Shown piece after piece: positions 10,408 through 64,000 of a stretch of 64,000 nt of DNA. The translations under genes and the position numbers were made by a program. This DNA is from Candidatus Latescibacterota bacterium (GTDB taxonomy: Bacteria > Latescibacterota > UBA2968 > GCA-2709665): positions 2,240,001 to 2,304,000 of the forward strand of contig OZ244937.1 in the NCBI GenBank assembly GCA_965222075.1, given 5' to 3'. Position 1 is the stretch's first letter; each line of letters opens with the position of its first letter. The notes under the pieces were generated by a model, which saw only the letters and a list, made by a program, of their open reading frames with translations, was not told where the DNA came from and did not search any database.

Positions 10408-10442
10408 AGGCTTATGTTGGCGCTTCAAACGGCTCATCGGGG

Positions 10443-38009: not shown

Positions 38010-38098
38010 TCGTCTTCTTCAGGACCTGCGATACATAACCCTTTGATCGTGCTTCACTCATCTATGGAAGCTGTGGAACTGCCTGGTGGGGAGATCAC
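38010..38098 (+). repeat. 89-nt leader repeated at 40198-40286
   Basis: only 3 mismatches between copies; each directly precedes a type-A ATG. Confidence 0.9.
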
Positions 38099-39144: not shown

Positions 39145-39211
39145 ACGACCATTGTGTCGACCTCATCGACGCAATACTGATACAAGTAAAAATACTCAAG
39201 GAACATAAAAT

Positions 39212-39640: not shown

Positions 39641-39698
39641 ACGACCATTGTGTCGGCCTCATCGACGAAATGCCGATACCAACCAAAGGAATACAAAT

Positions 39699-40121: not shown

Positions 40122-40286
40122 ACGACCATTGATTGTCGGTCTCATTAACACAATGCTCCCATACCAGAGGAATACCTCTTGACATTGAACCAGTAGATCG
40201 TCTTCCTCAGGACCTGCGATACATAACCCTTTGATCGTGCTTCACTCACCTATGGAAGCTGTGAAACTGCCTGGTGGGGAGATCAC

Positions 40287-41263: not shown

Positions 41264-41432
41264 ACGACCATTGATTGTCGGTCTTATCAACGCAATGTCC
41301 CCATACCAGAGGAATGCCTCATCTCACACCTTCGCACTGGCATCGTTAGCCTGCTCCTCTCGATTTCCCCGTGGTCTCTTTCCACACAGATCGGTAGCTT
41401 TTCCCTTTCTCCGATATTGAGTATATAAACCC

Positions 41433-44400: not shown

Positions 44401-44840
44401 CCTTTTCGCCGGATGGGACGATACTGGCTTCCGGGGCTTTGGATGGCACGATTCTGCTGTGGGATGTAGCGACTGGAAATGCCACCATTCTTGAGGGGCA
44501 TACGGGCAATGTCTTTTCCGTGGCCTTTTCGCCGGATGGGATGTTGCTATCTTCCGGATCAGGGGATGGCACGATTCTGCTGTGGGATATGTCACCGGAT
44601 ATCACACCTCAAACTCCCAATCCCGACTTTGATGGCGATGGCCGTGTTGGCTTTGGCGATTTTGTGCAGTTTGCGGCACGGTTCGGGTTGAGTCAAGGCG
44701 ATGAGAGGTATGATGCGCGGTACGATCTGGATGGGGATAGCACCATCGGATTCAGCGACTTTGTGATCTTTGCCAATGCCTTTGGCCTGCCTGCCGAGTC
44801 GTCTTCGGCGCAGGCAGGCAAAGAAGTATCATCGAATTGA
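41433..44840 (+). CDS. secreted WD40 repeat protein: 7 WD40 + Ig-like (Big-1) + about 14 WD40 + dockerin-like EF-hand
   Basis: GHT..V.SVAFS.DG..LASGS.DGTI.LW repeats; KISGDDQQG...VEVRD Ig domain; DFDGDGRVGFGDF. Confidence 0.92.
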   Translation: MKKSILYSACFALVRLNLALLLVAFLFVQDSRAQNPLEGHTDAVESVAFSQDEMLLASGSVDGTVKLWNIETRRNTDTFEGHTDVVSSVAFSQDGMLLASGSSVDGTVKLWNVQADTNIAILEEHTDVVSSVAFSQDGTLLASGSVNGEILLWNVATGSATSLKGEAVSSMAFSQDGMLLASGAVDGTILLWNVSKENATTLRGHTDDVSSVVFSSDGMLLASGSDDNTVKLWDMQTGTDRTLEGHTDAISSVAFSQDGTVLASGSVDGTILLWNVAKRKQITTLEGHRDAVSSVAFSQDGTVLASGSVDGRILLWNVSEWTQPRPHTLEKISGDDQQGTPRAMLANPLMVEVRDQNNNPLPDVQVTFRVTAGAGKLSGRFTIEHATTDSNGRAEGTLTLGPNPGTNTVEVSIVGREPETFNAVSIGTPAVPSLDGDYPTWHVPDGAIARLGKGPIGTGDKAVAFSPDGQRLAVASGIGVWLYDVPTSRELMLLPSASAVNSVAFSQDGMQLASGSVDGTVALWDIETGRNTDTFEARRGNVFPVAFSPDGTLTASRSVESVAFSPDGTLIASGLKDGTVVLWDIATGNATTFEGHTDWVSSVAFSPREDGTLLLASGALDRTVKLWDVQAGTNAATFETRRGNVFSVAFSPDGTILASGSGDGTILLWDIETENAIPLEGHTDDVNSVAFSPDGTILASGSDDNTIKLWNVQAGTNIATFEEHTDVSSVSLSQDEDGVLLLASGSVDGTILLWDAATENITPLEGHTQAVSSVAFSPDEDETLLASGLRDGTILLWDTARREQITTLEGHTQAVSSVAFSPDGRLIASGALDGTILLWNIATGNTTPLEGHTQAVTSVAFSPDEDETILASGSLDGTILLWNIATENATSLEGHTQAVTSVAFSPDEDETILASGAVDGTILLWNITTGNTTPLEGHTQAVTSVAFSQNEDGALLLASGALDGTILLWDVATGNATILEGHTGNVFSVAFSPDGTILASGALDGTILLWDVATGNATILEGHTGNVFSVAFSPDGMLLSSGSGDGTILLWDMSPDITPQTPNPDFDGDGRVGFGDFVQFAARFGLSQGDERYDARYDLDGDSTIGFSDFVIFANAFGLPAESSSAQAGKEVSSN
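44786..44818. repeat. 33-bp palindromic element inserted in frame
   Basis: CCTGCCTGCCGAGTCGTCTTCGGCGCAGGCAGG; removal restores FGKEVSS, matching FGKDVSS in the LRR protein. Confidence 0.85.
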
Positions 44841-44921
44841 CTGCCGCTTCTGAAGTCACAAATCGCGTTCTACAGGACCAAAAATCAGTGTCAATTGGCA
44901 AAACTGTTCACAGGATTGATC

Positions 44922-50900: not shown

Positions 50901-53057
50901 GGCAAAGGCGGCAGTGCAACCATTGTCGTGGAGATCACCCTCACCGATGAAAACGAACCACCGGACAGACCCGATGCACCTGTAGTCACGGCCTCAACGT
51001 TGAACAGCCTGAGCATCCGCTGGACAGCCCCCACCAACCCCGGCCCTGCCATCAACGGCTACGACGTGCAGTACAGGGCAGAGGGCGGCAGTTTCACCGA
51101 CTGGCCCCATACCGGCACGGGCACGACCACGACCATCACGGGCCTGACCGCAAACACCCGTTACGAGGTGCAGGTGCGGGCGCGCAACACTCGCAACACT
51201 CAGGGAGAGAGCAACTGGTCGCCATCGGTTACCGGAACGACCATAGCCAATCAGTCTCCAGTCTTCAGCGAGGGGACGACCACGATGCGCAGCATGGCCG
51301 AGAACACAGGCGCAGGTCAGAACATCGGCAACCCGGTCAGTGCGACGGATGGCGACAGCGACCGCCTCACCTACAGCCTCGAAGGTATGGATGCCTCTGC
51401 ATTCACCATCCAGTCCAATAGCGGTCAACTCATAACTGGATCGGGTGTGACGTATGACTATGAGACACAGGACAACTATTCGGTAACAGTGCGGGCACAG
51501 GACGACAAAGGCGGCAGTGTGACCATTATCGTGGAGATCACCCTCACCGATGAGAACGAACCGCCACGTAGACCCGATGCGCCCACAGTCACAGCCTCGT
51601 CGAATAGCCTGAGCATCCGTTGGGCAGCGCCGGAGAATACCGGGCCTGCCATCAGCGACTACGACGTACAGTACAGGGAGGCAGGTGGCAGTTTCACCGA
51701 CTGGCCCCATATTGGGCCGGGCCTGAACACGACGATTACGGGCTTGACCTCTGATACCCGTTATGAGGTGCAGGTCCGGGCGACCAACGACGAAGGCACG
51801 GGCGACTGGTCGCCATCGGGCAGTGGCACCCCCCTTAGTCCCCCTCCCGGCTTTGCCCCGGTAGACCAGAATGCATTCAACGCGCTTGTTGTTGACAAAG
51901 TCCTCTCAGTAGAAACCTATTATATTGAGTTTGTATCTGCTGGTCGCTTTGAGGAAAACAATGAATATCCGGGAAGCTATACATATTCAAATACCGGCTC
52001 GAATACCGGCACGCTTACGCAAAATTATGATGGGGGGCAGCTGGGTGGTACCTGTACAATCGAACTGACCTTCTCTTCAACAACCACAGGCACGTTACGC
52101 GCCAGATGTGGAAGCGACGAAAACTACGATCCACCCCAGGAGTGGCTGCTTTCCGATGCGCCCGACCCCAGCGCCTTCAATATCGAAGTCATTTGGGTCG
52201 GCGGCGAGCCATCTGAAGATCACAGGGCAGCCTTCAATGCCGCGGTTACGCGTTGGGAGAGCATCATCACGAGTGACATCCCTGATATTTTTGTTGATAT
52301 AGGGACCGGGGGTGAGACAGACGGCGTTAAGGTCTTCGGTCTCATAGACGACCTGCGGATCTACGCACGCCTCACGGATATTGATGGCGAAGGTGGAACC
52401 CTGGGCAGAGCAGGCCCCCGATTAAGGCGCGGACAATCGAAATTGCCGATCGTAGCGCGAATGGAATTCGACACGTCCGACCTGGGCGATTTTACGCCTG
52501 AAGCCCTGCAAGATCTCTTTCTGCATGAAATGGGGCACTGTTTGGGGGTCGGCACTTTGTGGGAACGCCTCGGCTTGTTAGAAAATCCCTCAATCGTCAC
52601 GTTTTTTATTTTTCCCGTAGAGGTGGATGATGCCGACACGCATTTCACGGGTGCAAGTGCGATTGAGGCGTTCAATGACGCTGGCGGAACGGACTACGCG
52701 GATGGAAAGGTGCCGGTGGAAAATGAGAAAGGGGGAGCGGGTACACGGGACGGTCACTGGCGGCAGTCTGTGTTCGGCCCCAATGAGCTCATGGAAGGAT
52801 TCGCTTCTCCCAGTGCTGCGATGCAACAACCGTTGAGCGCGATCACGATCCAGTCTCTGGCCGATCTGGGCTACATCGTCAATGTCAACCAGGCAGATGA
52901 GTACACGCTACCCTCTCCTGCCGCTACAAAATTGGCGATATCATCTGAGCACCTGATCCCGATCAACTGCATCATAATAGAACCCATCGGCGTGATTGAT
53001 GAGCACAGGCCGATCGAGTTGAAGCCCAAGCGTGTGAAGATGCCTGAGGATCAATGA
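44922..53057 (+). CDS. giant surface protein: cohesin-like, dockerin-like, 7 CARDB, 6 cadherin-like, 6 FN3 domains and C-terminal leishmanolysin-like (M8) metallopeptidase
   Basis: PDL.VES..YYYGAC..ES.T.NNCS (CARDB); NQPPVF..ENT..YDYET (cadherin); W.AP..YEVQVRA (FN3); HEMGHCLG...GHW...ELM. Confidence 0.9.
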   Translation: MKSPVKFLSFALGISILLSLILLIYPWSLSPQTSSFSLSLDLDNSAGDQAASSLDVSPDQIVSIQIFGKDIQNANGLSTLLEYDATQVIYKKFTVGDVLPNPLVEQDSTFGPAQAKAFVQIDMASLEGSTTANSSLIGTLRFHTTDAFSSTEIRLVRAGLGREGQFETVTTAISVALQVAAAPSPDFDGSGTVDFPDFLAFVSVFGSEEGQDNYDAKYDLNSDGKIVFEDFQILTHSFGKTVVAQKPPTPPKSPKVSAQSTPASSPDLIVESFSVSDSILDAGATFTLSATVRNQGTGTSPLLMNLDYYRSTDETISTSDTKVGWDLVRRLAASEISDESTRVWAPSSGGTYYYGACIEAVSGESDTDNNCSNAVTVTVGSPDLIVEPPSVSDSSPKAGASFTLSATVRNQGNGTSPFLMTLNYYLSTDATISTSDTKVGWDHVSRLAASGTSDESARVRAPSSDGTYYYGACIEAVSGESDTDNNCSNAVTVTVGSTTTPPTPNQPPVFSEGASATRSIAENTGAGQNIGNPVSATDGDGDRLTYSLEGRDASAFTIQSNSGQLVTRSGVTYDYETKNSYSVTVRAQDGKGGSATIIVEITLTDENEPPGRPDAPTVTASTLNSLSIRWTAPTNPGPAISDYDVQYRAEGGSFTDWPHTGTGTTTTITGLTANTRYEVQVRARNTQGESNWSPSVNGTTIANQSPAFSEGTSTTRSIAENTGAGQNINNPVSATDGDSDRLTYSLEGRDASAFTIQSNSGQLMTGSGVTYDYETKNSYSVTVRAQDGKGGSATIAVEITLTDENEPPGRPDAPTVTAASSTSLKVTWTAPDNPGPAISDYDVQYRAEGERSFTDWPHTGTGTTTTTITGLTASTRYEVQVRATSDEGTGDWSPPGSGMTSSGGGSGGGGSGGGGNNPDLIVESPSVSNSTLGPGESFRLNATVRNQGGSRSASTTLRYYLSTDETISTGDTEVDTDYVSRLDPSGISDESARLTAPPGEGTYYYGACVVAVTGESNTDNNCSSPVTVTVIGPDLVVESPSVSDSTLGPGESFYLNATVHNQGGSRSASTTLRYYLSTDETISTGDTEVDTDYVSRLDASESGDESARLTAPPGEGTYYYGACIEAVSGESNTDNNCSSPVSVTVVGPDLVVESPSVSDSSPKAGAYFTLSATVRNQGGSRSASTTLRYYLSTDETISTGDTELDTDYVSRLAASESGDESARVRAPSSEGTYYYGACIEAVSGESDTDNNCSNAVTVTVGSTTTPPTPNQPPVFSEGTSATRSIAENTGAGQNIGNPVSATDGDSDRLTYSLEGRDASAFTIQSNSGQLVTRSGVTYDYETKNSYSVTVRAQDGKGGSATIAVEITLTDENEPPDRPDAPTITASTLNSLSIRWTAPTNPGPAISDYDVQYRAEGGSFTDWPHTGTGTTTTITGLTANTRYEVQVRARNTQGESNWSPSVTGTTTTNQSPVFSEGTTTMRSIAENTGAGQNIGNPVSATDDDSDRLTYSLEGRDASAFTIQSNSGQLITRLGERYDYETQDSYSVTVRAQDGKGGSATIAVEITLTDENEPPGRPDAPTVTAASSTSLKVTWTAPDNPGPAISDYDVQYRAEGERSFTDWPHTGTGTTTTRTGLTANTRYEVQVRATSDEGTGDWSLSGSGTTSSDGGNNPDLTVELPSVSNSTLAPEQSFRLSATVRNQGGSQSASTTLRYYLSTDETISTGDTEVDTDYVSRLDPSEISDESARLKAPSSDGTYYYGACVVAVSGESDTDNNCSGPVTVTVVGPDLVVESPSVDNNTPTPGRLIKLSATVRNQGGGRSSFTTLRYYQSTDETIDSSDTEVYKNYVSSLDPSEISDKWILFSAPSSAGTYYYGACVEAVTGESDTDNNCSRAVTVTIRSAPPPPAPNQPPVFSEGASTTRSIAENTGAGQNIGNPVSATDDDSDRLTYSLQGRDASAFTIQSNSGQLVTRSGVTYDYETQDSYSVTVRAQDGKGGSATIVVEITLTDENEPPDRPDAPVVTASTLNSLSIRWTAPTNPGPAINGYDVQYRAEGGSFTDWPHTGTGTTTTITGLTANTRYEVQVRARNTRNTQGESNWSPSVTGTTIANQSPVFSEGTTTMRSMAENTGAGQNIGNPVSATDGDSDRLTYSLEGMDASAFTIQSNSGQLITGSGVTYDYETQDNYSVTVRAQDDKGGSVTIIVEITLTDENEPPRRPDAPTVTASSNSLSIRWAAPENTGPAISDYDVQYREAGGSFTDWPHIGPGLNTTITGLTSDTRYEVQVRATNDEGTGDWSPSGSGTPLSPPPGFAPVDQNAFNALVVDKVLSVETYYIEFVSAGRFEENNEYPGSYTYSNTGSNTGTLTQNYDGGQLGGTCTIELTFSSTTTGTLRARCGSDENYDPPQEWLLSDAPDPSAFNIEVIWVGGEPSEDHRAAFNAAVTRWESIITSDIPDIFVDIGTGGETDGVKVFGLIDDLRIYARLTDIDGEGGTLGRAGPRLRRGQSKLPIVARMEFDTSDLGDFTPEALQDLFLHEMGHCLGVGTLWERLGLLENPSIVTFFIFPVEVDDADTHFTGASAIEAFNDAGGTDYADGKVPVENEKGGAGTRDGHWRQSVFGPNELMEGFASPSAAMQQPLSAITIQSLADLGYIVNVNQADEYTLPSPAATKLAISSEHLIPINCIIIEPIGVIDEHRPIELKPKRVKMPEDQ

Positions 53058-53088
53058 AATTCCGATACCGAGAAATTGCTGAAATACA

Positions 53089-54525
53089 ATGCTAAATCTC
53101 ACACCCTTGTCTTTTGTCATGTCCATTCTTAAACCCATGACACTCTGTTCTCTATTCACATCACTGCTCTTGATCCCATCGTTTGCACAACACTTTTTAG
53201 GCGCGTTTTCAGGGTTGGTACTCCAGGTTGATACGCAACTCGAAAGTCCTGTGCAAAACAACAATGTGCAGACCCTTCCCGAACAAGAGACGGGGGATAC
53301 GATCCGGTTTCAGCTTTTCGTACCAGCAGGCGCGGGTCACTCTACCAATGGTTATACAGTAGAACTCGATCTGCCGGGCAAGACATTTTCCAGCTATATC
53401 GGGAATGTATCAGGCAAGGATTGGACAGGAGGAGCGCTGATAGGCACTGGCTCTACAAAGTCCGCGTTATTCACCACGGGTGTTTCTGTGCCCTCAACGG
53501 GTTATTTGGGGCAGCTTGATTTACAGGTGATGAGGCCGCTTAAGGATGGGGCGACACTGATCGTCAAAAGCCTTTCAATAACCAGTGGGAGCAATGTTGA
53601 CGTGTTGGATGTGTCAAATGCGATCATCTCTTTTACTGTACTGACAACTGGTCCCGGTGATTTTGATGGCAGTGGGGACGTAAATTTGGCGGATTTTCTG
53701 CTCTTTGCCGCAGTTTTTAACAAGTCATCATCGGATGTGGAGTTTGATGCGCGGATGGATTTTGATGGCAATGGGAACGTAAATTTGGCAGATTTTCTGG
53801 TGTTTGCGGAGGTGTTTGGCACAACGTATTCCACAGGCGGCGGGCAAGGCGGTGGAGGGCAAGAAGGGATCGGCCCGAATCAGGCGCCGAGGGCGGTAGA
53901 AAACATCGCCGACCAGGACATGATCCAGGGAGAGGGTGACGCTGTGTTGGATGTATCCCCGTACTTCCGGGACGGGGATAGAGACGAGTTGACGTTCGCA
54001 GCGGTGTCGAGCGACGAATCGGTCGCGACGGTCGTGATATCCGGTTCGACGGCGACAATCAAACCTGTATCGCCAGGTAGTGCCGCGGTGACGGTGACAG
54101 CCATGGATCCGGGTGGATTGAGCGCCACGCAGCGTTTCCGGGTGTATGTGGAAGCCCCCGGCCCCCCACTGACAGGACCCTATGAACCGCTGGAATGGAT
54201 CAGCGTCTCTCCCGGCCGGATCGTGTGGCGGCCCGTCTCCTTCATTCCCTTCAGGTGCCTCGGTTGGTCGGTTGCCACCGTAAACGGCGTTACGTACGAA
54301 ATCCACTTTTCTCAGTGGCAGAGGAGAGACAACTCAAGAAGCCCCTGGACCGATATCCCCGGTACGAGAAAAGCCAGAAAAATGTGCGGCTACACCCCTG
54401 ACACATCGGGTGAATACAGACTCGTTATGGAGCTATCGATCAACGGAATCCGGGGACGATACGCCAGTTCGAACACGATTACCGCGATATGCGATGGCGG
54501 GGAGTGTCGATTTTTCCAGCTATAG
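53089..54525 (+). CDS. secreted protein: cohesin-like + dockerin-like EF-hand + Ig-like + Cys-containing C-terminal domain
   Basis: GDTIRFQLF..NGYTVEL beta-sandwich; DFDGSGDVNLADF twice; NQAP..YF.D.D.D.LTF.A.SSD.SVA Ig. Confidence 0.78.
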   Translation: MLNLTPLSFVMSILKPMTLCSLFTSLLLIPSFAQHFLGAFSGLVLQVDTQLESPVQNNNVQTLPEQETGDTIRFQLFVPAGAGHSTNGYTVELDLPGKTFSSYIGNVSGKDWTGGALIGTGSTKSALFTTGVSVPSTGYLGQLDLQVMRPLKDGATLIVKSLSITSGSNVDVLDVSNAIISFTVLTTGPGDFDGSGDVNLADFLLFAAVFNKSSSDVEFDARMDFDGNGNVNLADFLVFAEVFGTTYSTGGGQGGGGQEGIGPNQAPRAVENIADQDMIQGEGDAVLDVSPYFRDGDRDELTFAAVSSDESVATVVISGSTATIKPVSPGSAAVTVTAMDPGGLSATQRFRVYVEAPGPPLTGPYEPLEWISVSPGRIVWRPVSFIPFRCLGWSVATVNGVTYEIHFSQWQRRDNSRSPWTDIPGTRKARKMCGYTPDTSGEYRLVMELSINGIRGRYASSNTITAICDGGECRFFQL

Positions 54526-54616
54526 GCGGATGCGACGTGTACCTGCTCATTTCCCGCCAGCCGTTTCCGGGCACAAGATGACCTGAAATGAACATGATTT
54601 GGAGCAACCTGAACCC

Positions 54617-54787
54617 ATGAAAACCTCCGTTCTCCAATCCGCGTTTCCTGCCTTAATGGCATTCGTACTCTCGCTCCCGACCGTCGGCTATGCCTCTTCC
54701 TCCGCATTCGAGTGGCTGCTCCTCTACCGACACGCAGGCTACGACTCACCTACAACCTGCGAGGAAAGACACCAGACATGGGCTTGA
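54617..54787 (+). pseudogene. orphan signal-peptide remnant related to the 63225 peptidase
   Basis: MKTSVLQSAFPALMAFVLSLPTVGYASS aligns with MKPPVLRFTLFAMLGVFLCLPVAGHASP. Confidence 0.5.
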
Positions 54788-57084
54788 CACCCAAGCCTGA
54801 AACCGTCCACGAAACCGGGGTAACTCCAGGACAGCGGCAAAGACGATACGCAAATTGCCGGTTGGTTCAACGCTTTTTTGCTTTGGGTTTGTTTTTTTGG
54901 TGTTTGAGTTCCGTTCTATTTTACGCTTTTCCCACTTTTTCAGAACAAAGACCCCGAGTCGCTCTTGTGTTCAGTGGGGGTTCACGTGGAGGAGCGCATA
55001 TAGGGGCATTGCGTGCGCTCGAGCGCGGAGGCGTGCCGATTGATTTGATTGTGGGCGTGAGTTATGGCGCATTGGTTGGAGGATTGTACGCTGCCGGATA
55101 TTCCGTTGATGACCTTGAACGCATTATTCTGGAGACGGACTGGGAGAAAATGGCTGACGACAATCCCGACCGCCGACTGTTGAATATGAATCGCAAACCC
55201 ATAAGCGATCGACAGATGATAGAATTCAGGCTGGATAAATTGGAACCGAGTTTGCCGCTGGGGCTGGGGATTTTTTCAGGGCAAAAGATGCAGCAGTTTC
55301 TCAATCGATTGACCATCGGCGCAACGAGCAAGGCGCGAAACGACTTTGATCGGCTTCCAACGCCCTTTCGCGCAATTGCAACAGATGTTTTATCTGGCGA
55401 ACAGGTCGTGCTTAAGAGTGGCCTGCTCGGCACGGCACTCCGAGCGAGTGTTACATGGCCTGGGCTGTTTGCACCGGTGAGCACTGAACAAACCCATCTC
55501 GTGGATGGTGGTATTATCAACAATTTGCCCGTAGATGTCGCATTGGACGCCGGGGCCGATTTTGTTATTGCCATTGATTGTACAACGCCATTGAAGTCTC
55601 AAAAGCATGAGATTGAAAATCTGATCAATGTGATCGGTCAGATCATTGGTTTTCAAACTGAAAAGCGAAACATAGCAAATCGAAAACGCGCCCATGTGTT
55701 GATCAGGCCCAACTTGAGTGAATTTGATGCGATCAATTTTGATCAAGAGCACCTTCTGATCCCAGTCGGAGAAAAAGAAGCCGAAAAACATCTGGATGCG
55801 ATTTGGAAGACTCTGCAATCGCTTGGGATTTCGAGGCGCGTTGGAAAGCCGAGACCGTCCGTATTACCGGACGATTTTAATCCTGAAACCTGGCCAGGAA
55901 TGCCATTGGATATGATGATTGACCGGGTTCAGATTGAGGGATTGGAACGCTATACCCGAGAGGTTTTTACATCGCGGTTGAAGAAGCTCGTTAATAGGCC
56001 CATATCGTTTCGAGAACTGGATAGGGAAGCAGCCCTGCTTTATGCGACAGGATTATTTCAAACGGTGGATTATCAGATTCTCTATCGGGATAACCAGATC
56101 GATTTGGTCTTTGTTGTGCGCGAAACCAATCCTTGGGAAGTGAAAGTGGGATTTCATTACGACCATGATTTTCAGTTTTTGATGTTGGGAGAATTTGCGC
56201 GTCAAAATACTTTTGGGCGCGTGCCGAGATTCTATGTTCGCGGTTTGGGTTTGTCCGACAAATTGCACTTTGCCGAAACGGGTCTGATTTTTCGTCCACC
56301 TATTGGCCCGCGTATTTTGGGCGAGGCTCAATGGTGGGATCAAGAACGGTTGTATTTTCAAAATGGGCACCGCCAGGGCGAGTATCGGGAAGGGCGTTTT
56401 CGCACGCGTTTGGGACTGCAGGTTTTGTTCCACAGTTGGGGAAGTTTCAAAGCGGGGTATCTGGTTGAGCATGTCCGCATTCGCAATACGGTCCATTCAA
56501 TGGACAATGTGTCCGAATATGTACCCGGCTATTGGCTGTCTGCAAGCGTTGACACCCGAGACGATGGGATATTGCCAAAGCGAGGCATCTATTTTCAAAC
56601 GCAGGCAAAGTGGGCTCACCGGACATTTTCATACCAACAGGTGCAAACACAGCTTGCGTACTTCGCCAGTCCCCATCCGAAATTAAGTGTGGGTGTTTGG
56701 TCTCATGGAGGCTATGTGCCGCAGTCTGCACCAATTTACGAACGCTTTCACATGGGAGGTGCAAGGCATTTTAGCATGGCAGCATTGCGCGTGATCGGTC
56801 TTAGGCGAGATGAACTCAGGGCTTCCAGGTTCGTATCGGCGGGTATTTCTGTTTGGAACCATGTGAAACTTTGGGATGACCTGTCGCGCAGCGCAGTTGG
56901 AATTTTCTATCAGGGCGGCCTGTACAATTCGGCGCCCGATTCGAATCAACCAAATACCTGTATTCACGGTTTTGGCATGGGATTTTATATTGGCACGCGG
57001 TTTTTGGGGCCCATTCGCGTTGATGTTGTGGGCAAAAATAAAAAAGATATCCAGATTTATACCGCAATCGGATTTGCGTTTTGA
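54778..57084 (+). CDS. PlpD-like patatin phospholipase + POTRA + Omp85-type beta-barrel (type Vd autotransporter-like)
   Basis: ALVFSGG.RG.AHIG, GVSYG, VDGG; LYATGLFQTV POTRA; C-terminal GPIRVD...IGFAF; start uncertain. Confidence 0.87.
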   Translation: MGLTPKPETVHETGVTPGQRQRRYANCRLVQRFFALGLFFWCLSSVLFYAFPTFSEQRPRVALVFSGGSRGGAHIGALRALERGGVPIDLIVGVSYGALVGGLYAAGYSVDDLERIILETDWEKMADDNPDRRLLNMNRKPISDRQMIEFRLDKLEPSLPLGLGIFSGQKMQQFLNRLTIGATSKARNDFDRLPTPFRAIATDVLSGEQVVLKSGLLGTALRASVTWPGLFAPVSTEQTHLVDGGIINNLPVDVALDAGADFVIAIDCTTPLKSQKHEIENLINVIGQIIGFQTEKRNIANRKRAHVLIRPNLSEFDAINFDQEHLLIPVGEKEAEKHLDAIWKTLQSLGISRRVGKPRPSVLPDDFNPETWPGMPLDMMIDRVQIEGLERYTREVFTSRLKKLVNRPISFRELDREAALLYATGLFQTVDYQILYRDNQIDLVFVVRETNPWEVKVGFHYDHDFQFLMLGEFARQNTFGRVPRFYVRGLGLSDKLHFAETGLIFRPPIGPRILGEAQWWDQERLYFQNGHRQGEYREGRFRTRLGLQVLFHSWGSFKAGYLVEHVRIRNTVHSMDNVSEYVPGYWLSASVDTRDDGILPKRGIYFQTQAKWAHRTFSYQQVQTQLAYFASPHPKLSVGVWSHGGYVPQSAPIYERFHMGGARHFSMAALRVIGLRRDELRASRFVSAGISVWNHVKLWDDLSRSAVGIFYQGGLYNSAPDSNQPNTCIHGFGMGFYIGTRFLGPIRVDVVGKNKKDIQIYTAIGFAF

Positions 57085-57277
57085 TACGTTGGAAAAAGGG
57101 GAAAGAAAAGGTTACGGTAGTCCAGTACTTGAGTAACAGAAGTGTAGGTAACTGACTAATTTACAATAAGATCCGATATGTTAACGGTCAATATGGCAAA
57201 GTTGCTTTAAAATCAGCCATTATGCACTGAATTTTCGGTCAAGGTGTCGTTTTTGAGGATATAAAAGGAGGGCCACC

Positions 57278-58765
57278 GTGAAAGTACTTCTGATCAGTCC
57301 GCCACTTCACAGCCTCTACCACGCCGTCAGGATCATCATTCCACCCCTGGGTCTTCTCTATATCGCCGGCAAGCTCGACGCAGACGGTCACGACGTCGAA
57401 GTGCGGGATATGTCATTTTTCGATGGGCCGGAGACCTATGACGACTACGACCTGGTCGGCATTACGTGCACGACTCCCCAGTACCCGGCGGCGCTTCAGT
57501 ATGCCAGGCATGCCCACGATGCCGGGTGCCGCACCCTGATCGGCGGCACGCACGTCACCTTCACCACCCAGACCACCCTTCGCCTCGTTTATGTCGATTT
57601 CGTCATCCGGGGCGAGGGCGAGCAGGCCACCTCTATTTTGGTGCGCAACCTGGAGGAGGAAGGCTCCCGGTTCGATCCCCGGAAGGTCCCCAGCCTCTCC
57701 TGGTACGATCCGGAAACCAAAACCGTGGTGAACAATCCCCAGATCCCCGACATCGGCACCGTAGACGATCTCCCCCGTCCGGGACGTCATCTGCTTGATA
57801 TGGAGCCCTACAAAGTCACCGAACTCCTGGGAAATCCGGTAACTACCATGATCACCAGTCGGGGGTGTCCCTACAACTGCACCTTCTGTTCGGTGCCCAC
57901 CCTCTACCAGAAGCGCAAGTGGCGTTCTCGGGAGGCCGTCCTGGCCGTAGACGAGATAGAATACCTGGAGGAAACCTACGGCTTTGGCGGGGTACTCCTG
58001 GTCGACGACCTGCTGACAACCAACCATGTACGCGTCCACGAACTCTGTGCGGAAATCATCGACCGGGGCCTGAAGATAAACTGGTGGTGTCAGTCCCGCG
58101 CAGATATCCTGGTAAAACACCCCGAACTGGTGGAACACATGGCGGCGTCGGGCTGTTCCAACGTTTTCCTCGGCCTCGAGTCGGGAAACGAACACGTCCT
58201 GACCCACTGGAACAAAAAGATGAAGCTCGATATTGGCGGACAGGCCGTGGAACTGCTGCGCCAGCACGACATCCGGGCGCTCACCGCCTTCATTATCGGC
58301 ATGGAATTCGAGACCGAGGAGGATATCGACCGGACGATCGAATACGCCATCACCCTGGATGCCCACCAGGCGCAGTTCTCTATTCTCACCCCTTATCCGG
58401 GCACGGCCGACTGGGACCGAAACATCCCGCGCATCTTCGACAACAACTGGGCGAACTACACCGGCAGCAAGGTCGTCTTCCACCGGGATACGCTGCCGCC
58501 TGAAGTCATCGAGGCCAAACTCCGCAAAGCGTATATCTCGTTCTACAACCCCCTTCGCCGGTGGGATAAGCTCCTGAAAAACGTACCCGGGTTGAAGCCC
58601 GGTGAACTCTGGAGCGTCTGGCGCAAACTGCGCACCCAGCGCAAAGAGGTGATTTCCGAGATGGACCCCGTATCGAACCTCATCCCCCTGGCGCCCGAAT
58701 CGCGGGAGGAATGGCTGGCCGCTCAACCAAAGCCCCCGGTCGAGGGACTGATTGCCGCATCTTAA
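57278..58765 (+). CDS. B12-binding domain radical SAM protein
   Basis: PPLGLLYIA, GGTHVT, GEGE, SRGCPYNCTFC, GLESG, TPYPGT; GTG start after AAGGAGG. Confidence 0.92.
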   Translation: MKVLLISPPLHSLYHAVRIIIPPLGLLYIAGKLDADGHDVEVRDMSFFDGPETYDDYDLVGITCTTPQYPAALQYARHAHDAGCRTLIGGTHVTFTTQTTLRLVYVDFVIRGEGEQATSILVRNLEEEGSRFDPRKVPSLSWYDPETKTVVNNPQIPDIGTVDDLPRPGRHLLDMEPYKVTELLGNPVTTMITSRGCPYNCTFCSVPTLYQKRKWRSREAVLAVDEIEYLEETYGFGGVLLVDDLLTTNHVRVHELCAEIIDRGLKINWWCQSRADILVKHPELVEHMAASGCSNVFLGLESGNEHVLTHWNKKMKLDIGGQAVELLRQHDIRALTAFIIGMEFETEEDIDRTIEYAITLDAHQAQFSILTPYPGTADWDRNIPRIFDNNWANYTGSKVVFHRDTLPPEVIEAKLRKAYISFYNPLRRWDKLLKNVPGLKPGELWSVWRKLRTQRKEVISEMDPVSNLIPLAPESREEWLAAQPKPPVEGLIAAS

Positions 58766-58817
58766 ACCTTACGCCCCAATGGCCAAACAAATTCTGACAC
58801 AGAGGAGTGTTACCCAA

Positions 58818-60941
58818 ATGTATTCAAAAAAGAGCATGTTGGTAATTGCCATCCTCGGGTTCCTGGCCTTTGTGGGTCAAACCTACGCCGCCCCCAATGC
58901 TAACGCCGTTTTGCCGCTGGACCCTATTGCCGACGACGCAACGGGTGACGGAACGAATGACGACGCCACATCGGACTTTGTTTCTGCTGAGGACACGACC
59001 ATTGCCGCTGGCAAAGTCATTACCACAAGTGTGATTACGTCCAATACCGCGCCTTCGCCTGACTTCGATGGCGACGGTACGGTTGGTTTCTCCGACTTCC
59101 TGATCTTCGCAAGCGTGTTCGGGTCGCGTCAGGGCGATGGGAAGTACAATGCCCGGTATGATTTGAATGGCGATGGTTCCATTGGTTTTCCGGACTTTCT
59201 GATCTTTGCGCAGAACTTCGGCAAAGACGTATCGTCGCCCGGGGGCGGGGAGACAACGATAGTTGCCATTCCGGATGCAAACCTGTATGCGGTCATTGCG
59301 GACAGTCTCGGCAAGGCGCACGGTGCGCCAATCACTCAGGCAGAGATGGCGACCTTAATTCGCCTTGATGCATCGAACAAGAGTATTCGCGATCTGACCG
59401 GGCTTGAGTTTGCAATTAACCTGACAGAGTTGGTCCTTGGTGGAGCGGAAGGGAGATTGTGGGAGGTGAACATCAATGAGATAGCCAACCTTTCACTACT
59501 ATTGACCAATATAATAGAACTATGGATTAACTTTTCCTTCAACCTTTCCTACAACAGCATATCGGATGTGGTGCCACTATCTAACTTGACCCGTCTGGAA
59601 TTGCTGGATCTTTCCGGCAACAGCATATTGAATGTGGCGCCACTATCTAACTTGACCAATCTAAGAGGGCTGGATCTTTCCGGCAACAGCATATCGGATG
59701 TGACGCCGCTATCTAACTTGACCAATCTGGAATTGCTGTCTCTTTCCTACAACAGCACATCGAATGTGTCTGCACTGTCAGGATTGACCCGTCTGGAATG
59801 GCTGTCTCTTTCCGACAACAGCATATCGAATATGGCACCGCTATCTAACTTGACCAATCTGGAATTGCTGGATCTTTCCGGCAACAGCATATCGGATGTG
59901 ACGCCGCTATCTAACTTGACCAATCTGAAATGGCTGTCTCTTTCCGATAACAGCATATCGGATGTGACGCCGCTTGTGACGCTTCTATCTAACTTGACCA
60001 ATCTAAGATCCCTATCTCTTTCCGATAACAGCATATCGGATGTGACGCCGCTATCTAACTTAATCAACCTGGAATGGCTGGAGCTTTCCGGCAACAGCAT
60101 ATCGGATGTGACGCCGCTATCTAACTTGACCAATCTAAGAGCCTTGGATCTTTCCAGAACCAGCATATCGAATGTGTCTGCACTGTCAGGATTGACCCGT
60201 CTGGAATGGCTGTCTCTTTCCGACAACAGCATATCGAATATGGCACCGCTATCTAACTTGACCAATCTGGAATTGCTGGATCTTTCCGGCAACAGCATAT
60301 CGGATGTGACGCCGCTATCTAACTTGACCAATCTAAGAGCCTTGGATCTTTCCAGAACCAGCATATCGAATGTGTCTGCACTGTCAGGATTGACCCGTCT
60401 GGAATGGCTGTCTCTTTCCGACAACAGCATATCGAATATGGCACCGCTATCTAACTTGACCAATCTGAAATGGCTGTCTCTTTCCGACAACAGCATATCG
60501 AATGTGTCTGCACTGTCAGGATTGACCCGTCTGGAATGGCTGTCTCTTTCCGACAACAGCATATCGGATGTGACGCCGCTATCTAACTTAATCAACCTGG
60601 AATGGCTGGAACTTTACAGCAACAGGATCTCAGACCTCGCGCCACTGGTAGCAAACACGGGATTGGGTGAAGGAGATATAGTTGATGTGAGTGACAATCC
60701 CTTGAGTGCCACATCAATCAACACACACATTCCGGCACTTCAGCGCAGAGGGGTTGACGTGGATTTCAGCGCATCGAAGCCTGCGGTGCAGAAGAAAAAA
60801 CGGGGCATGCTCCCTGCGGTGATGGACACGTACAGGGGTGAGGGGCGGGAGGCAGACGGTTATATCTATCGCGGACGGATGGAGAATCGGAAGGAGGTGA
60901 CCAGGCAAAAGCTGCGCCCGTCCATCGGAGCTGAGAGGTGA
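58818..60941 (+). CDS. secreted internalin-like LRR protein with dockerin-like EF-hand
   Basis: signal peptide after GAGGAG; DFDGDGTVGFSDF; IPDANL cap; about 17 regular 22-aa LRRs. Confidence 0.92.
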   Translation: MYSKKSMLVIAILGFLAFVGQTYAAPNANAVLPLDPIADDATGDGTNDDATSDFVSAEDTTIAAGKVITTSVITSNTAPSPDFDGDGTVGFSDFLIFASVFGSRQGDGKYNARYDLNGDGSIGFPDFLIFAQNFGKDVSSPGGGETTIVAIPDANLYAVIADSLGKAHGAPITQAEMATLIRLDASNKSIRDLTGLEFAINLTELVLGGAEGRLWEVNINEIANLSLLLTNIIELWINFSFNLSYNSISDVVPLSNLTRLELLDLSGNSILNVAPLSNLTNLRGLDLSGNSISDVTPLSNLTNLELLSLSYNSTSNVSALSGLTRLEWLSLSDNSISNMAPLSNLTNLELLDLSGNSISDVTPLSNLTNLKWLSLSDNSISDVTPLVTLLSNLTNLRSLSLSDNSISDVTPLSNLINLEWLELSGNSISDVTPLSNLTNLRALDLSRTSISNVSALSGLTRLEWLSLSDNSISNMAPLSNLTNLELLDLSGNSISDVTPLSNLTNLRALDLSRTSISNVSALSGLTRLEWLSLSDNSISNMAPLSNLTNLKWLSLSDNSISNVSALSGLTRLEWLSLSDNSISDVTPLSNLINLEWLELYSNRISDLAPLVANTGLGEGDIVDVSDNPLSATSINTHIPALQRRGVDVDFSASKPAVQKKKRGMLPAVMDTYRGEGREADGYIYRGRMENRKEVTRQKLRPSIGAER

Positions 60942-61024
60942 TAATACCATCGGCTCAAGTGCGGTTTCAAGTCGGCCAACACGATACTTTTATAACCGAA
61001 GGATATTAAAAGGGAGGAGTTTCA

Positions 61025-62968
61025 ATGAGCTATCGAGACCGTCTAATCTCAACAGCTGCTGATATTGCCTGGAAAATCTTTCAAAGCGTCAACACACGTA
61101 TCCCCGAAGGTCAGCCGTTTCAGCCTGCATGGGCTCCAGCGCCCCTGTTGAAAAGCTACGAACGCAGCAAGCCCCAGCTTGGGTTTCCCCGTGAGACAGA
61201 CTCGCTGTGCCCCGACTGCGTCAAAGAGGTCAGAAATGCGGTCATCGAAGGCCGGCGCGACATCCGCGAACTGGTTGAAGGCCATCCCGGTGAGATCAAG
61301 ATGCAGATGTTGGAGGAAAACGGGCAAATCGTCCTGCGCAAGACCTGTCCGATACACGGCATCTACGAAGACATTCAGTCGATCGATCCCGAATTCAGTC
61401 AGATCATTGAGAGCCGTTTCCCCGGCCGCGACTACCGCACCTTTGGCGACGAACACATCCACCACCACGGCACCTCCAGCATCAAGTACGGGCGTGGGGC
61501 GGTGCTCACCATCGATCTGACCAACCGCTGCAACATGATGTGCAACCCCTGCTTTATGGACGCCAACCAGGTGGGGTATGTGCACGAATTGACCCTCGAT
61601 GAGGTCAAGCGCATCCTGGATGCGTCCATCTCATTCAAACCCAGGCGGCAGATGTCGGTTCAGTTCTCCGGCGGTGAACCCACCATCTCCCCGCACTTCT
61701 TAGAAGCCTGCCAGTATGCCAAAGAGGTGGGATACTGGTGCGTGCAGGCGGCAACCAACGGGGTGCGGTTTGCCCAGGATCCCGAATTCGCGTTTGCCGC
61801 CAAGGAGGCCGGCCTGGACATGGCCTACTTGCAGTTCGACGGGGTGACCAACACGGCCAACCAGCACCGCCACATCTCCAACCTCTTCGACGCCAAGCTC
61901 CTGGCCATGGAAAGCCTCGCCAGGGCCGACATCGACATCACACCGGTCACTACGGTGTTAAACACCATCAACAACGACCAGGTGGGTCCCATCCTCCAGT
62001 TCTGCATCGACAACAGCGACAAGGTCGGCTCCATCTCCTTCCAGCCGATCTCGTTTACCGGCCGCGACGAAGACATCAGCAATGAGCTTCGCCACCAGCA
62101 GCGCTACACCATCTCCCACCTCGCCCACGACCTGGAGGAATGGTCAGGAGGGAAGCTGCAGGCCCACCGCGACTGGTATCCGCTGGGTGCGGGCATCCTG
62201 TTTACCACCCTGGCCGACCACCTGCGCGGTCCGGACATCCAGTTTGGGGGTCAGACCTGTTCCTGCCACCCCAACTGCGGCTCTGCCCTCCACATTATGG
62301 TCAACGAAAAGACGAAGGCGTGGGCGGCCATCACTGAGTTCTTCGATCAGGACCAGTTTATGAAAGACATTGAAGTGATGACCGACACTTCGCGCGACCC
62401 CAAGCTGATCAAAGTGCAGGCGGCTCTCTCCCTGCTGCGCAACTTCAATTTGAAGAAGGCACCCCCGGGGTTCAAGCTGGAAGACCTGGGGCGCATCTTC
62501 GACCGCAGAGTGGGCGGCTCCATAAGCGGGGGTGAGCGCCCGGAAGACAGGGAGTGGCGGATTATGTGGGTGGGCGGCATGTGGTTCCAGGACCTGTGGA
62601 CCTACGACTTTCGCCGCACCGAGATGTGTGTGATCCCCTATGCCACCCAGGATGGCGAGATCTCCTTTTGCGCCTACAACACCGGCATCGGCTGGCGTCA
62701 GATCATCGAGAACATACACATGACCGCCACCACGGCCGAATGGTTCAAGACGGTTGGCCGGCATTCCATATACGCGGGTGACCGGGACATGCCCCTGCCG
62801 GATGCGCAGCACACATTGAGGGTGCGGGAGAACGAGAACGGCGAACTGGAGCTGCCCGTGGTCGATGAGCAGTCCGGCAACAGCAGCTGTGGCTGCTCCT
62901 CTACCGACACACAGGAGGAGATTAAGAAGATTGTCTCCGCGCCGGTAGAAGAGGGCACCATCGCGTAG
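61025..62968 (+). CDS. tes: tetraether lipid synthase (Tes/GDGT-MAS, MJ0619 family) homolog, radical SAM
   Basis: SLCPDC...CPIHG rubredoxin-like site; IDLTNRCNMMCNPCF; SGGEPT; YLQFDG; SCHPNCG; FQDLWTYDFRRTEMCVIPY...ISFCAYN. Confidence 0.82.
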   Translation: MSYRDRLISTAADIAWKIFQSVNTRIPEGQPFQPAWAPAPLLKSYERSKPQLGFPRETDSLCPDCVKEVRNAVIEGRRDIRELVEGHPGEIKMQMLEENGQIVLRKTCPIHGIYEDIQSIDPEFSQIIESRFPGRDYRTFGDEHIHHHGTSSIKYGRGAVLTIDLTNRCNMMCNPCFMDANQVGYVHELTLDEVKRILDASISFKPRRQMSVQFSGGEPTISPHFLEACQYAKEVGYWCVQAATNGVRFAQDPEFAFAAKEAGLDMAYLQFDGVTNTANQHRHISNLFDAKLLAMESLARADIDITPVTTVLNTINNDQVGPILQFCIDNSDKVGSISFQPISFTGRDEDISNELRHQQRYTISHLAHDLEEWSGGKLQAHRDWYPLGAGILFTTLADHLRGPDIQFGGQTCSCHPNCGSALHIMVNEKTKAWAAITEFFDQDQFMKDIEVMTDTSRDPKLIKVQAALSLLRNFNLKKAPPGFKLEDLGRIFDRRVGGSISGGERPEDREWRIMWVGGMWFQDLWTYDFRRTEMCVIPYATQDGEISFCAYNTGIGWRQIIENIHMTATTAEWFKTVGRHSIYAGDRDMPLPDAQHTLRVRENENGELELPVVDEQSGNSSCGCSSTDTQEEIKKIVSAPVEEGTIA

Positions 62969-62978
62969 CCGAACCGGG

Positions 62979-63095
62979 GCCGCCGAGATTCAGCATCCGG
63001 GTGCGGTCCTTTCGGTGGCGTTTTCGCGCGAAGGCACCACCCTCGCGTCCGGGTCAGAGGATGGCACGATGCTGCTGTGGGATTTGAAATCGAAG
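62979..63095 (+). pseudogene. single orphan WD40 repeat remnant
   Basis: reads QHPGAVLSVAFSREGTTLASGSEDGTMLLWDLK with no RBS or start of its own. Confidence 0.7.
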
Positions 63096-63104
63096 GCGTT
63101 TTAC

Positions 63105-63138
63105 GAGACAGGTTGTCCGCTTGTGGACAACCTGTCTC
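63105..63138. repeat. 14-bp perfect inverted repeat (REP-like)
   Basis: GAGACAGGTTGTCC-N6-GGACAACCTGTCTC. Confidence 0.7.
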
Positions 63139-63224
63139 TGACCATGACGCCGTAATGCAGAACGCCGACGCATCCGGCGATCAAGACGGTAGGATGGCTG
63201 TTTCTGGGTAAGGTGGATAACACC

Positions 63225-64000
63225 ATGAAACCTCCCGTTCTTCGTTTCACTCTATTCGCGATGCTCGGCGTCTTTCTCTGTCTGCCGGTAGCCGGCCATG
63301 CGTCGCCCCCGCCGGCCGACAGCGTGCATGTCTGCGCGTACTTCGATTACGAGCAGTGGCGACGGGATCACCCCCGCCCGGCGGCCAAGCCGCTGGCGGA
63401 CCTGGACGTGGGCGAGCCTCGCACCGTGCGGATGATCTACTTCCTGCCCAACGACCGTCCTTTTCGTCAGGAGGTGGTCGATTCGATGAGAGTCCGGATC
63501 CGGCAGGTGCAGACTTTCTTTGCGGAGCAGATGGAGGCCAACGGACGAAGCAGCGGGACACTCCGTATTGAAACCGATCCCCAAGGTGAGCCGCTGGTCC
63601 ATCGCGTGGATGGGCAGCACCCGGACAGCCACTACCTCGATGTGACGGGCATTGTGTACGAGGAGATCGACCAGGTCTTCGACCTCGAGGAGAACATTTA
63701 CCTCATCGTCGTCGACAACAGCATTGATGCAATCGGGATTGGCGGCGGCAGGCTTGCGGGAGGAACCGGCGGGGGCTACAAGAAGCGTGGCAGTGCGCTG
63801 GTACCTGGGAGTGTATTCTTCAATACGGTTGCCCACGAAATGGGCCATGCCTTCGGCTTGCTGCACGACTTCCGCGATGGTGAGTACATCATGTCCTACG
63901 GCCCAGGACGGACTCGCTTGTCGGCCTGCGCTGCGGAGTTTCTGGCGGTGAATCCCTACTTCAATCAAGACAGCTCTCTTGAGAGTGACTGGGAGCGGAG
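63225..64000 (+). CDS. secreted metzincin-type zinc metallopeptidase (partial, runs off the window)
   Basis: absent from the ORF track; translated by hand: signal peptide, TVRMIYFLPND, HEMGHAFGLLH, IMSY Met-turn. Confidence 0.85.
   Translation, partial: MKPPVLRFTLFAMLGVFLCLPVAGHASPPPADSVHVCAYFDYEQWRRDHPRPAAKPLADLDVGEPRTVRMIYFLPNDRPFRQEVVDSMRVRIRQVQTFFAEQMEANGRSSGTLRIETDPQGEPLVHRVDGQHPDSHYLDVTGIVYEEIDQVFDLEENIYLIVVDNSIDAIGIGGGRLAGGTGGGYKKRGSALVPGSVFFNTVAHEMGHAFGLLHDFRDGEYIMSYGPGRTRLSACAAEFLAVNPYFNQDSSLESDWER

Follow-up and report, generated by a model that had tools for sequence, protein, structure and literature searches.

A duplicated type-B Tes-like gene beside a relocated cobalamin-type radical SAM gene in a Latescibacterota genome: a candidate pair for membrane-spanning lipids

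Gene content and composition of the locus

The analysed window is a stretch of 64,000 nucleotides from a Candidatus Latescibacterota genome (G000:C1:2240001-2304000; the source genome G000 is assembled as a single contig of 5.36 Mb with 5.24% estimated contamination), and the locus in question lies near its end, where a cobalamin-type (B12-binding) radical S-adenosylmethionine (SAM) gene and a Tes-like radical SAM gene are found with a leucine-rich repeat (LRR) gene between them. A preliminary description of this DNA had read the two radical SAM genes as a two-enzyme module for bacterial membrane-spanning lipids, of the diabolic-acid or branched glycerol dialkyl glycerol tetraether (brGDGT; GDGT without the branching) type. 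The three open reading frames (ORFs) that it had named were all recovered, co-oriented on the + strand; the first start codon, at 57278, comes 22 bases after its start at 57256. The features referred to below are:

57278-58765, + strand, cobalamin-type (B12-binding) radical SAM gene (B12 gene), 495 aa, Pfam B12-binding and Radical_SAM
58752-60941, + strand, LRR/dockerin surface-type protein gene, 729 aa, Pfam LRR_4 and Dockerin_1
61025-62968, + strand, Tes-like radical SAM gene, type B, 647 aa, Pfam Radical_SAM and Zn_ribbon_HMPTM
58555-58740, + strand, 3′ end of the B12 gene, 186 bp, with a second copy (stub) at genome positions 4717686-4717871
60999-63003, + strand, duplicated segment, 2005 bp, with its twin at genome positions 3379775-3381779
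63006-63155, + strand, short open frame directly 3′ of the duplicated segment, inspected as its translation

The 57278 protein matched Pfam B12-binding (PF02310) with 60.1 bits (cut-off 32.1) and Radical_SAM (PF04055) with 66.8 bits (cut-off 29.5), the Tes-like protein matched Radical_SAM with 59.5 bits and Zn_ribbon_HMPTM with 39.2 bits (cut-off 27), and the LRR protein matched LRR_4 with 199.6 bits and Dockerin_1 with 24.0 bits (cut-off 22.9). A guanine-plus-cytosine (GC) content of 0.592 was determined in each of the radical SAM genes, with third-codon-position values (GC3) of 0.756 in the B12 gene and 0.793 in the Tes-like gene, and the genome GC is 0.593; both genes share the genome's own composition, and the common GC-rich codon style described for them earlier was borne out. 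Lower GC was found in the LRR gene (0.502, GC3 0.589) and in the patatin-Omp85 gene upstream (0.493). The LRR gene comprises internal repeats in a 66-nt register, with self-matches within 59544-60625; it overlaps the end of the B12 gene by 14 bases and is followed by a gap of 83 bases before the Tes-like gene, a spacing that would allow a single transcript, so the three genes may be co-transcribed as one unit.

The Tes-like gene encodes a type-B bacterial member of the Tes/GDGT-MAS superfamily

The best NCBIfam family of the 61025 protein was Tes (NF045702), with 303.4 bits and an E value of 2.6e-90 over profile positions 2-481 of 486, followed by TrsS (203.9 bits versus a cut-off of 490), and residues 92-563 were aligned to the GDGT-MAS structure 7TOL with 204 bits. 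Reference Tes proteins were taken from genomes reached via other loci; scored against NF045702, three archaeal proteins reached 735-753 bits, Bryobacteraceae proteins 593.8 and 317.3, a Planctomycetota protein 321.9 and the protein of genome G064 577.9. In a maximum-likelihood tree (LG+G4, 24 rows), all Tes-like rows were set apart from generic radical SAM proteins with 100/100 support, and the bacterial rows formed one group, again at 100/100. Within this group the proteins above the cut-off, here called type A, sat on short branches, and a clade of 15 rows with 100/100 support, here called type B, united the window protein with its Latescibacterota relatives, database proteins named as Gemmatimonadota, and the below-cut-off proteins of Bryobacteraceae and Planctomycetota; the stem of type B measured 1.35 changes per site. 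The window protein was 28% identical to archaeal Tes, 35% to type A and 51-52% to type-B proteins of other phyla (51% to the below-cut-off Bryobacteraceae paralog and 52% to the Planctomycetota protein). These results place the product of the 61025 gene among the type-B bacterial proteins of the Tes/GDGT-MAS superfamily.

Metal sites were followed through 126 type-B sequences, namely the window protein, 120 among the matches listed and 5 others, by reference to the GDGT-MAS site list, which includes an N-terminal cluster at C73, C77 and C80 (PMC9433317). Every one of the 126, including the 120 among the matches listed, kept the rubredoxin-type C-x2-C...C-x2-H site; the three Cys of the radical SAM CX3CX2C motif were likewise kept in 126/126, window protein included, and so were the Cys of the C-terminal auxiliary [4Fe-4S] cluster together with the labile Met. 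The N-terminal [4Fe-4S] cysteines, which are present in 5/5 references (3 archaeal and 2 bacterial type A), were found in 0/126 type-B sequences, being replaced by L/H/R/K, H and S. Relative to GDGT-MAS, the window protein additionally carries a 22-residue insert between the ribbon halves, an N-terminal extension of ~55 aa and a C-terminal one of ~80 aa.

The outcome on Tes membership is therefore split: the tree joins the protein to Tes at 100/100, yet it scores 303 bits where the curated cut-off of NF045702 is 450 and has lost the N-terminal cluster cysteines. Accordingly, the family assignment of the preliminary description stands at the level of the superfamily, by the tree and the 7TOL alignment, and fails at the level of the equivalog. 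As judged from these sequence measures, the window protein is inside the Tes superfamily and outside the archaeal Tes equivalog.

The Tes-like gene is present twice in the genome

Window positions 60999-63003 and genome positions 3379775-3381779 are identical in 2004 of 2005 bases, with the sole difference at 62991, and the duplicated segment includes the ribosome-binding site and the complete Tes-like gene; among 41 genomes searched, two Tes matches were obtained in G000 only. Similarity stops abruptly 26 bases 5′ of the start codon and 35 bases 3′ of the stop. As read from the sequence, the 3.38-Mb copy is followed by a hairpin and a T run, and the window copy is truncated inside that hairpin. 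The 3.38-Mb copy adjoins tig-like, clpP and clpX genes, and in 7/7 relatives of family f1 (G003, G004, G006, G007, G010, G020 and G021) the neighbours of the single Tes gene are those of this copy, the shared neighbourhood comprising a 429-aa gene, clpP-like, clpX and engB-like genes and continuing to purA; in G010 the presence of Tes rests on homology search, with the Tes frame masked in the locus ORF calls. Since all seven relatives share the 3.38-Mb neighbourhood, that copy is the ancestral one and the window copy the second.

The near identity means that either the window copy is very recent or gene conversion has kept it the same as the first. That similarity breaks off sharply at both edges speaks for a recent insertion, while an older origin keeps some room because in two sequencing runs (X3 and X7) some contigs match from 60988 onward with different upstream letters, a third upstream variant; other strains have this third context in front of a Tes copy. 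Directly 3′ of the segment, the frame at 63006-63155 resembles, by eye, a WD40-repeat fragment; a broken WD40 gene, or a site next to one, was apparently where the Tes copy inserted, and this frame would mark the insertion site.

The duplication was followed in contigs of three DNA runs (X1, X3 and X7) from three studies. Unitigs on the LRR side reach 30 letters into the segment in X1, ending at 61028, and 19 letters in X3 and X7, ending at 61017; other contigs exit the segment at 60999 into letters of the 3.38-Mb flank (29-30 of 30 matching), and the long unitig of the Tes gene ends at 62990 in 3/3 runs, one base before the sole difference; a formal bridge, defined as 31 letters on both sides, was formed by none of the contigs. 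Contigs of the Tes gene were 1.2-3x deeper than those of the B12 gene, which fits a repeat and is no estimate of copy number. Such a pattern of unitigs stopping at the repeat edges indicates that the duplication is real, and we regard it as well supported rather than proven.

The B12 gene was relocated into the window and belongs to a clade that often adjoins other radical SAM genes

By its domain content, an N-terminal B12-binding domain followed by a radical SAM core, the 57278 gene is of the cobalamin-dependent (class B) radical SAM type. No named NCBIfam equivalog was reached by its protein, which scored 198.8 bits against BchE (TIGR02026, cut-off 481), 154.3 against HpnJ (TIGR03471, cut-off 578), 134.6 against HpnR (TIGR04367, cut-off 650) and 81.7 against the ladderane-type B12 radical SAM protein (TIGR04072, cut-off 360); the best solved structure by profile was AprD4 (6FD2, 122 bits). 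In its CX3CX2C motif C197 and C204 were invariant and C201 was conserved in at least 90% of 21 sequences. A tblastn search of the protein against plasmids gave no match above 31% identity, and a metagenome scan with this single protein as the query found no relative.

The 186-bp stub at genome positions 4717686-4717871 matches the 3′ end of the B12 gene with 96.8% identity by blastn and covers residues 424-488 by tblastn. In relative G004, the right-hand neighbours of the B12 gene map to G000 positions 4718408-4724837, directly beside the stub, and the left-hand neighbours map to 4885278-4892473; loose contig ends seen in runs X1, X3 and X7 at 58555 are consistent with a second context. The stub at 4.72 Mb and the mapping of the G004 neighbours thus indicate relocation: the 57278 gene has moved into an island of surface-protein genes. 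Because the stub is 96.8% identical and the Tes copies are 99.95% identical, the two genes arrived separately, the B12 gene first and the Tes copy later.

In a quick-search tree of 71 rows, the B12 orthogroup (14 rows, support 100) was placed inside a 38-row bacterial clade (support 99) that also holds the G064 protein; archaeal B12 homologs (32-36% identity) formed separate clades, whose position relative to the bacterial clade was not settled by this tree. Radical SAM/SPASM genes adjoin the wider-clade B12 homologs in 11 bacterial loci. SPASM type 1, found beside the B12 homolog in G044 and G045, shares 41% identity, along its entire length, with the gene preceding the B12 homolog in an Archaeoglobales metagenome-assembled genome (MAG), and the same pairing occurs in Methanobacteriaceae; the order of the SPASM type 1 and B12 genes matches the gms-gmm arrangement published for archaea (PMC11214058). 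SPASM type 2 (~470 aa) stands beside the B12 homolog in nine loci (L053, L056, L057, L061, L063, L069, L213, L216 and L217) of Zixibacteria, Planctomycetota, two Geobacter, a deltaproteobacterium, Bacteroidetes, G041, G065 and G070; it shares just 24% identity with the Gms-like type, and Mss would be a guess at its nature; no NCBIfam equivalog matched it, nor did NCBIfam give a specific family for the SPASM-type partners generally. No homolog of the Gms-like kind (SPASM type 1) turned up in G000, the best match there being partial with 56 bits; the Latescibacteria MAGs listed in PMC11214058 carry Gms and Mss and not Tes. As so many wider-clade B12 genes adjoin a second radical SAM gene, the clade appears usually to work next to another radical SAM enzyme, and in several cases this partner would be of the type that forms C-C bonds between lipid tails.

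Tes and B12 genes recur as a pair in some genomes

A linkage survey of 168 Latescibacterota genomes, with an ortholog threshold of at least 70% identity, yielded B12 orthologs in 11 (G000, G003, G004, G007, G038, G049, G050, G077, G078, G079 and G086), those of the 10 genomes other than G000 having 70-91% identity. A Tes homolog was present in 10 of these 11 versus 27/168 in the phylum overall, counts that overstate independence because the genomes surveyed are related; the lone genome with a B12 ortholog and no Tes, G050, has a shortened B12 frame (415-429 aa). In genus g9 (G038 and G086), Tes and then B12 are encoded on one strand with gaps of 157 and 107 bases, and metagenome locus L163 has the same order as G086 and a B12 protein identical to that of G086. 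G064, of a third lineage in the phylum, has a canonical Tes (577.9 bits) with a B12 homolog (42% identity) behind it, after a glycosyltransferase gene. The Tes copy of G000 lies 2.2 kb from the B12 gene. In G049, type-B Tes is present twice, flanked by 466-aa DDE transposase genes (L141, C4, 8214-13472; L132, C7, 6136-13148), and one copy, broken into two frames, lies 5.4 kb from the B12 gene. Pairing of Tes and B12 genes is recurrent, despite the non-ancestral neighbourhood in the window.

Three further observations concern these genes. The transposase-flanked Tes of G049 resembles a composite transposon. In one Latescibacterota family (L134 of G077, 6485-11338; also L136 and L138), the B12 ortholog overlaps the trmD stop codon in a row of ffh, rimM, trmD and rplS. 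In G001, the other genome of the genus of G000 (4.0 Mb in 320 contigs, 94% complete), neither the Tes homolog nor the B12 ortholog was seen at the thresholds used, which could be a loss or an assembly gap.

Lipid genes and source of the lineage

Beside a type-B Tes of another phylum, the neighbouring genes point towards lipids. In the Bryobacteraceae genome G174 (L209, 8375-16825), a 553-aa gene, an 1187-aa gene, the type-B Tes and a 361-aa radical SAM gene follow one another on one strand; the 1187-aa gene encodes two BcrAD_BadFG domains and DUF2229 and is of the Ger/PlsA type, a 'BBD' domain set being conserved in such ether-lipid enzymes (PMC13159169), and NCBIfam gave no specific family for these neighbours. 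Solibacter usitatus, of the Bryobacteraceae, has been proven to produce brGDGTs, and both PlsAR homologs and two Tes homologs have been proposed for it (PMC10087280). The type-B Tes beside a Ger/PlsA-type gene in Bryobacteraceae is the best evidence here for type B acting on glycerolipids. As an observation in its own right, the G174 row stands as a candidate for a brGDGT operon from the family that includes Solibacter usitatus.

Ether-lipid genes, which the preliminary description had suggested looking for, were found in G000 in part. An ether-lipid cluster at 4592416-4598975 (L161, 8417-14976) comprises a fatty-acyl reductase (FAR)-type gene (NAD_binding_4 and Sterile domains), a 673-aa gene, an AGPS-like gene (FAD_binding_4 and FAD-oxidase_C) and an SDR gene, with a FabH-type gene 1.6 kb upstream on the other strand; the 673-aa gene matched no specific NCBIfam family. 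The HGD-D match was absent from G000, hence no PlsA/Ger was recovered by that family.

As to the source, 0.80-0.92 of the sampled words of window positions 58000-64000 were present in sequencing runs from three studies, and 0.26-0.27 of them in four RNA runs with the label sponge metagenome. In run X14 the cover by RNA contigs is confined to 61274-62908, where the two Tes copies are indistinguishable, and its absence from the B12 and LRR genes is uninformative; one contig of 1509 letters spans 61400-62908 with zero differences, and it may come from either Tes copy and from RNA or carried-over DNA. The suggestion that the organism might be a sponge symbiont fits these sponge-labelled RNA runs, which hold the Tes-like gene. 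The closest B12 ortholog (91% identity) belongs to a Candidatus Latescibacterota MAG of the same family as G000. Membrane-spanning ether lipids of C30-C31, some of them methyl-branched, were reported in all sponges studied in a preprint that assigns tes only to Acidobacteriota MAGs (10.64898/2026.06.23.733905); the Latescibacterota of the family of G000 would be a further candidate source of sponge membrane-spanning lipids.

The surrounding island

Eukaryote-like surface-protein genes, the LRR gene among them, form an island that takes up the last third of the window (41-64 kb), and such islands are typical of sponge symbionts. Within 41433-57084, where GC is below the rest of the genome, are encoded a WD40 protein of 1135 aa with 20 repeats, an fn3/cadherin/CARDB protein of 2720 aa whose gene has internal repeats of ~2.3 kb with 77-90% identity, a dockerin/Ig protein and a patatin-POTRA-Omp85 protein. 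Several further repeats were observed in and beside the island: window 53867-54738 recurs at genome 2312413-2313283 with 97.4% identity, the patatin-Omp85 gene region 54865-57090 has a 78% paralog at 328844-331060, and window 35764-36295 recurs at 2713934-2714464 with 97.7% identity. Window 38010-41320 is low in GC (0.41-0.46) and consists of diverged tandem copies of ~2.2 kb with 77-89% identity; the one ORF scanned in it, 38099-38701, matched no Pfam family.

Proposed function and alternative explanations

We propose that the Tes-like and B12 genes may be a coupling-plus-tailoring pair for membrane-spanning lipids, a reading of the sequences that is plausible and partly supported and to which we give slightly less than an even chance. 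The radical SAM cluster of the type-B enzyme would abstract a hydrogen from the end of a lipid tail, the C-terminal auxiliary cluster would hold that carbon until a second tail joins, as in GDGT-MAS, and coupling would yield a membrane-spanning lipid, of diabolic-acid or brGDGT type. Acyl or alkyl-ether glycerolipids are proposed as the substrates, and G000 has the FAR-AGPS-SDR cluster. The B12 enzyme would then tailor the same hydrocarbon chains, most likely by C-methylation rather than by ring formation or desaturation, on the analogy of Gmm, Cgm and Pgm, which methylate lipids in archaea and are B12 radical SAM enzymes too; rings (Grs) and double bonds (Ted) are further products of this enzyme class (10.1101/2025.10.20.683597).

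Several results weigh against this proposal. For the Tes-like protein, these are the missed NF045702 cut-off, the long type-B stem and the N-terminal cluster cysteines lost throughout type B; for the B12 protein, the reaction type of a B12 radical SAM enzyme is not readable from sequence. At the locus itself, the LRR gene stands between the two genes, and a promoter and terminator scan of 56800-63600 stayed at chance level (6 versus 4.2 expected and 6 versus 5.6 expected). In other genomes, a distance of 1.3-5 Mb separates the Tes and B12 genes of G003, G004 and G007, those of G077 are likewise apart, and G078 and G079 carry them on different contigs; family f3 has the B12 gene flanked by trmD and rplS and preceded by ffh and rimM (G077 and G078), or adjoined by rimM and rplS (G079, where trmD was not recovered in the ORF calls); and in genus g2, 15/15 genomes have Tes with no B12 ortholog. 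Six of ten metagenome ortholog loci had enough flank to be judged (L163-L167 and L169, L166 on its upstream side only), and five of these six show no Tes within 2.5-10 kb, the one that does, L163, being the G086 lineage again. Among the 80 loci found by means of the wider B12 alignment, all at 27-41% identity save L051, the ortholog at 91%, none had a full Tes nearby, with only five short matches to the radical SAM core. No functional test of any bacterial Tes homolog appears in the available parts of PMC8941075, PMC11868695 or the sponge preprint. The adjacency in the window is a lineage-specific rearrangement, new and not inherited. When adjacency was checked in relatives, as the preliminary description had advised, it was found in G038 and G086, which are one genus, and between distant paralogs in G064, with G049 near, and was lacking in G003, G004, G007 and G077; the two-enzyme module it described keeps the g9 and G064 pairs and the 10/11 co-occurrence in its favour, and the linkage in the window is not a conserved operon.

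The alternative that fares best, though we consider it unlikely, takes the Tes-like and B12 genes as unrelated neighbours, chance arrivals in a recombination-prone surface-protein island, with the B12 enzyme acting on RNA, a ribosomal protein or a small molecule instead of a lipid. The island in the window is full of duplicates, and the two genes did arrive separately and at different times, as the 96.8% identity of the stub and the 99.95% identity of the Tes copies tell; the B12 ortholog sits in a trmD-rplS setting in f3, its neighbours differ in every family, and most of its ortholog loci have no Tes nearby. Chance does not readily account, however, for the direct Tes-B12 adjacency in g9, the canonical Tes with a B12 homolog in G064, the co-occurrence in 10/11 genomes, or the similar landing of a Tes near the B12 gene in G049, and the relatives of the B12 enzyme adjoin lipid-type radical SAM genes. 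With uniform insertion sites, a 2-kb copy would fall within a few kb of a given gene in a 5.4-Mb genome in ~0.2% of cases, a figure that hot spots would raise.

A second alternative, which we hold to be improbable, is that the type-B Tes acts on a greasy substrate with no end-to-end coupling, by an intramolecular cross-link or by modification of another lipid, such as a hopanoid, a glycolipid or a quinone. A change of function would then show in the stem of 1.35 changes per site and in the lost cluster, in keeping with the conserved extensions at both ends and the score below the cut-off, and Tes homologs were reported in only 3/14 iso-diabolic-acid-producing Acidobacteria (PMC13159169). Against it, all 126 type-B sequences retain the Met and the C-terminal cluster, the site of the carbon-sulfur intermediate in GDGT-MAS, and the Bryobacteraceae type-B gene adjoins the Ger/PlsA-type gene in the family of the brGDGT producer Solibacter usitatus (PMC10087280). 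That the second Tes copy is an assembly error, as a single-contig assembly of an uncultured organism with some estimated contamination and two copies differing at one base might suggest, is very improbable and was rejected on the unitig pattern in three runs, where LRR-side unitigs enter the segment, others exit it at 60999 into the 3.38-Mb flank and all stop at 62990.

Beyond the coupling-plus-tailoring pair itself, the 57278 orthogroup and its wider bacterial clade might be the counterpart of the archaeal methylases of GDGT and glycerol monoalkyl glycerol tetraether (GMGT), adding mid-chain methyls to membrane-spanning lipids made by Tes, Mss or Gms, an extension that we rate as speculative and rather unlikely. 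If it were true, the orthogroup would be a concrete candidate C5/C6 methylase underlying the brGDGT methylation proxies, and a candidate for the methyl-branching of the C31 membrane-spanning ether lipids of sponges, and the repeated relocation of Tes to the B12 gene would be operon formation caught underway. Branched tetraether lipids are widely used to infer temperature and pH in the past. A literature search, which was not exhaustive and reached its sources in part, turned up no paper naming a bacterial brGDGT methylase, and the bacterial coupling enzyme for brGDGT is still called unproven (PMC8941075, PMC11868695).

The locus adds sponge-type Latescibacterota to the candidate producers, separates a common, cluster-poor type-B branch from canonical bacterial Tes, and points to one B12 radical SAM family that recurs beside Tes-type and related genes; should the pair leave lipids unchanged, a popular assumption on bacterial Tes homologs would be weakened. 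Bacterial Tes homologs as brGDGT candidates (PMC8941075, PMC10087280, PMC11868695, PMC13459092) and, from archaea, the logic of a B12 tailoring partner were already known. New here are the lineage, the split of type B from canonical Tes by the lost cluster, the B12 orthogroup as a companion of Tes, and the stepwise assembly in one island; the division into type A and type B was not found in the literature on bacterial Tes homologs, within the limited coverage of the sources available.

Comparison with known systems

Archaeal GDGT-MAS/Tes (MJ0619; 7TOL and 7TOM; NF045702) resembles the window protein in overall domain order, and the two are monophyletic relative to other radical SAM proteins. 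The window protein differs in its ~28% identity to the three archaeal proteins scoring 735-753 bits, in its place below the NF045702 cut-off, and in having no N-terminal [4Fe-4S] cysteines, while the ribbon insert and the two terminal extensions are its own; its substrate would be bacterial rather than isoprenoid. With the bacterial Tes homologs proposed for brGDGT or iso-diabolic acid in Acidobacteria, Planctomycetota and others (Zeng 2022, Halamka 2022 and the Black Sea survey), the window protein shares the type-B clade, and it differs from them in its host, a sponge-type Latescibacterota.

The window B12 protein shares an N-terminal cobalamin domain and a radical SAM core with GrsA/B (rings), Gmm/Cgm/Pgm (methylation) and Ted (desaturation). 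As is proposed here, the tailoring gene of the archaeal lipid B12 enzymes stands beside a C-C-bond-forming radical SAM gene (PMC11214058, 10.1101/2025.10.20.683597), and a radical SAM/SPASM gene precedes the archaeal B12 homologs with 32-36% identity, just as gms precedes gmm; the window protein, however, falls in a bacteria-only clade, and the likeness is one of architecture and gene order. BchE, HpnJ, HpnR and the ladderane-type protein are the best-scoring named families for the 57278 protein, all far below their cut-offs. Mss of Thermotoga and Thermoanaerobacter has the same proposed product class and a radical tail-to-tail coupling (PMC13159169), but it is of a different radical SAM family and active only anaerobically.

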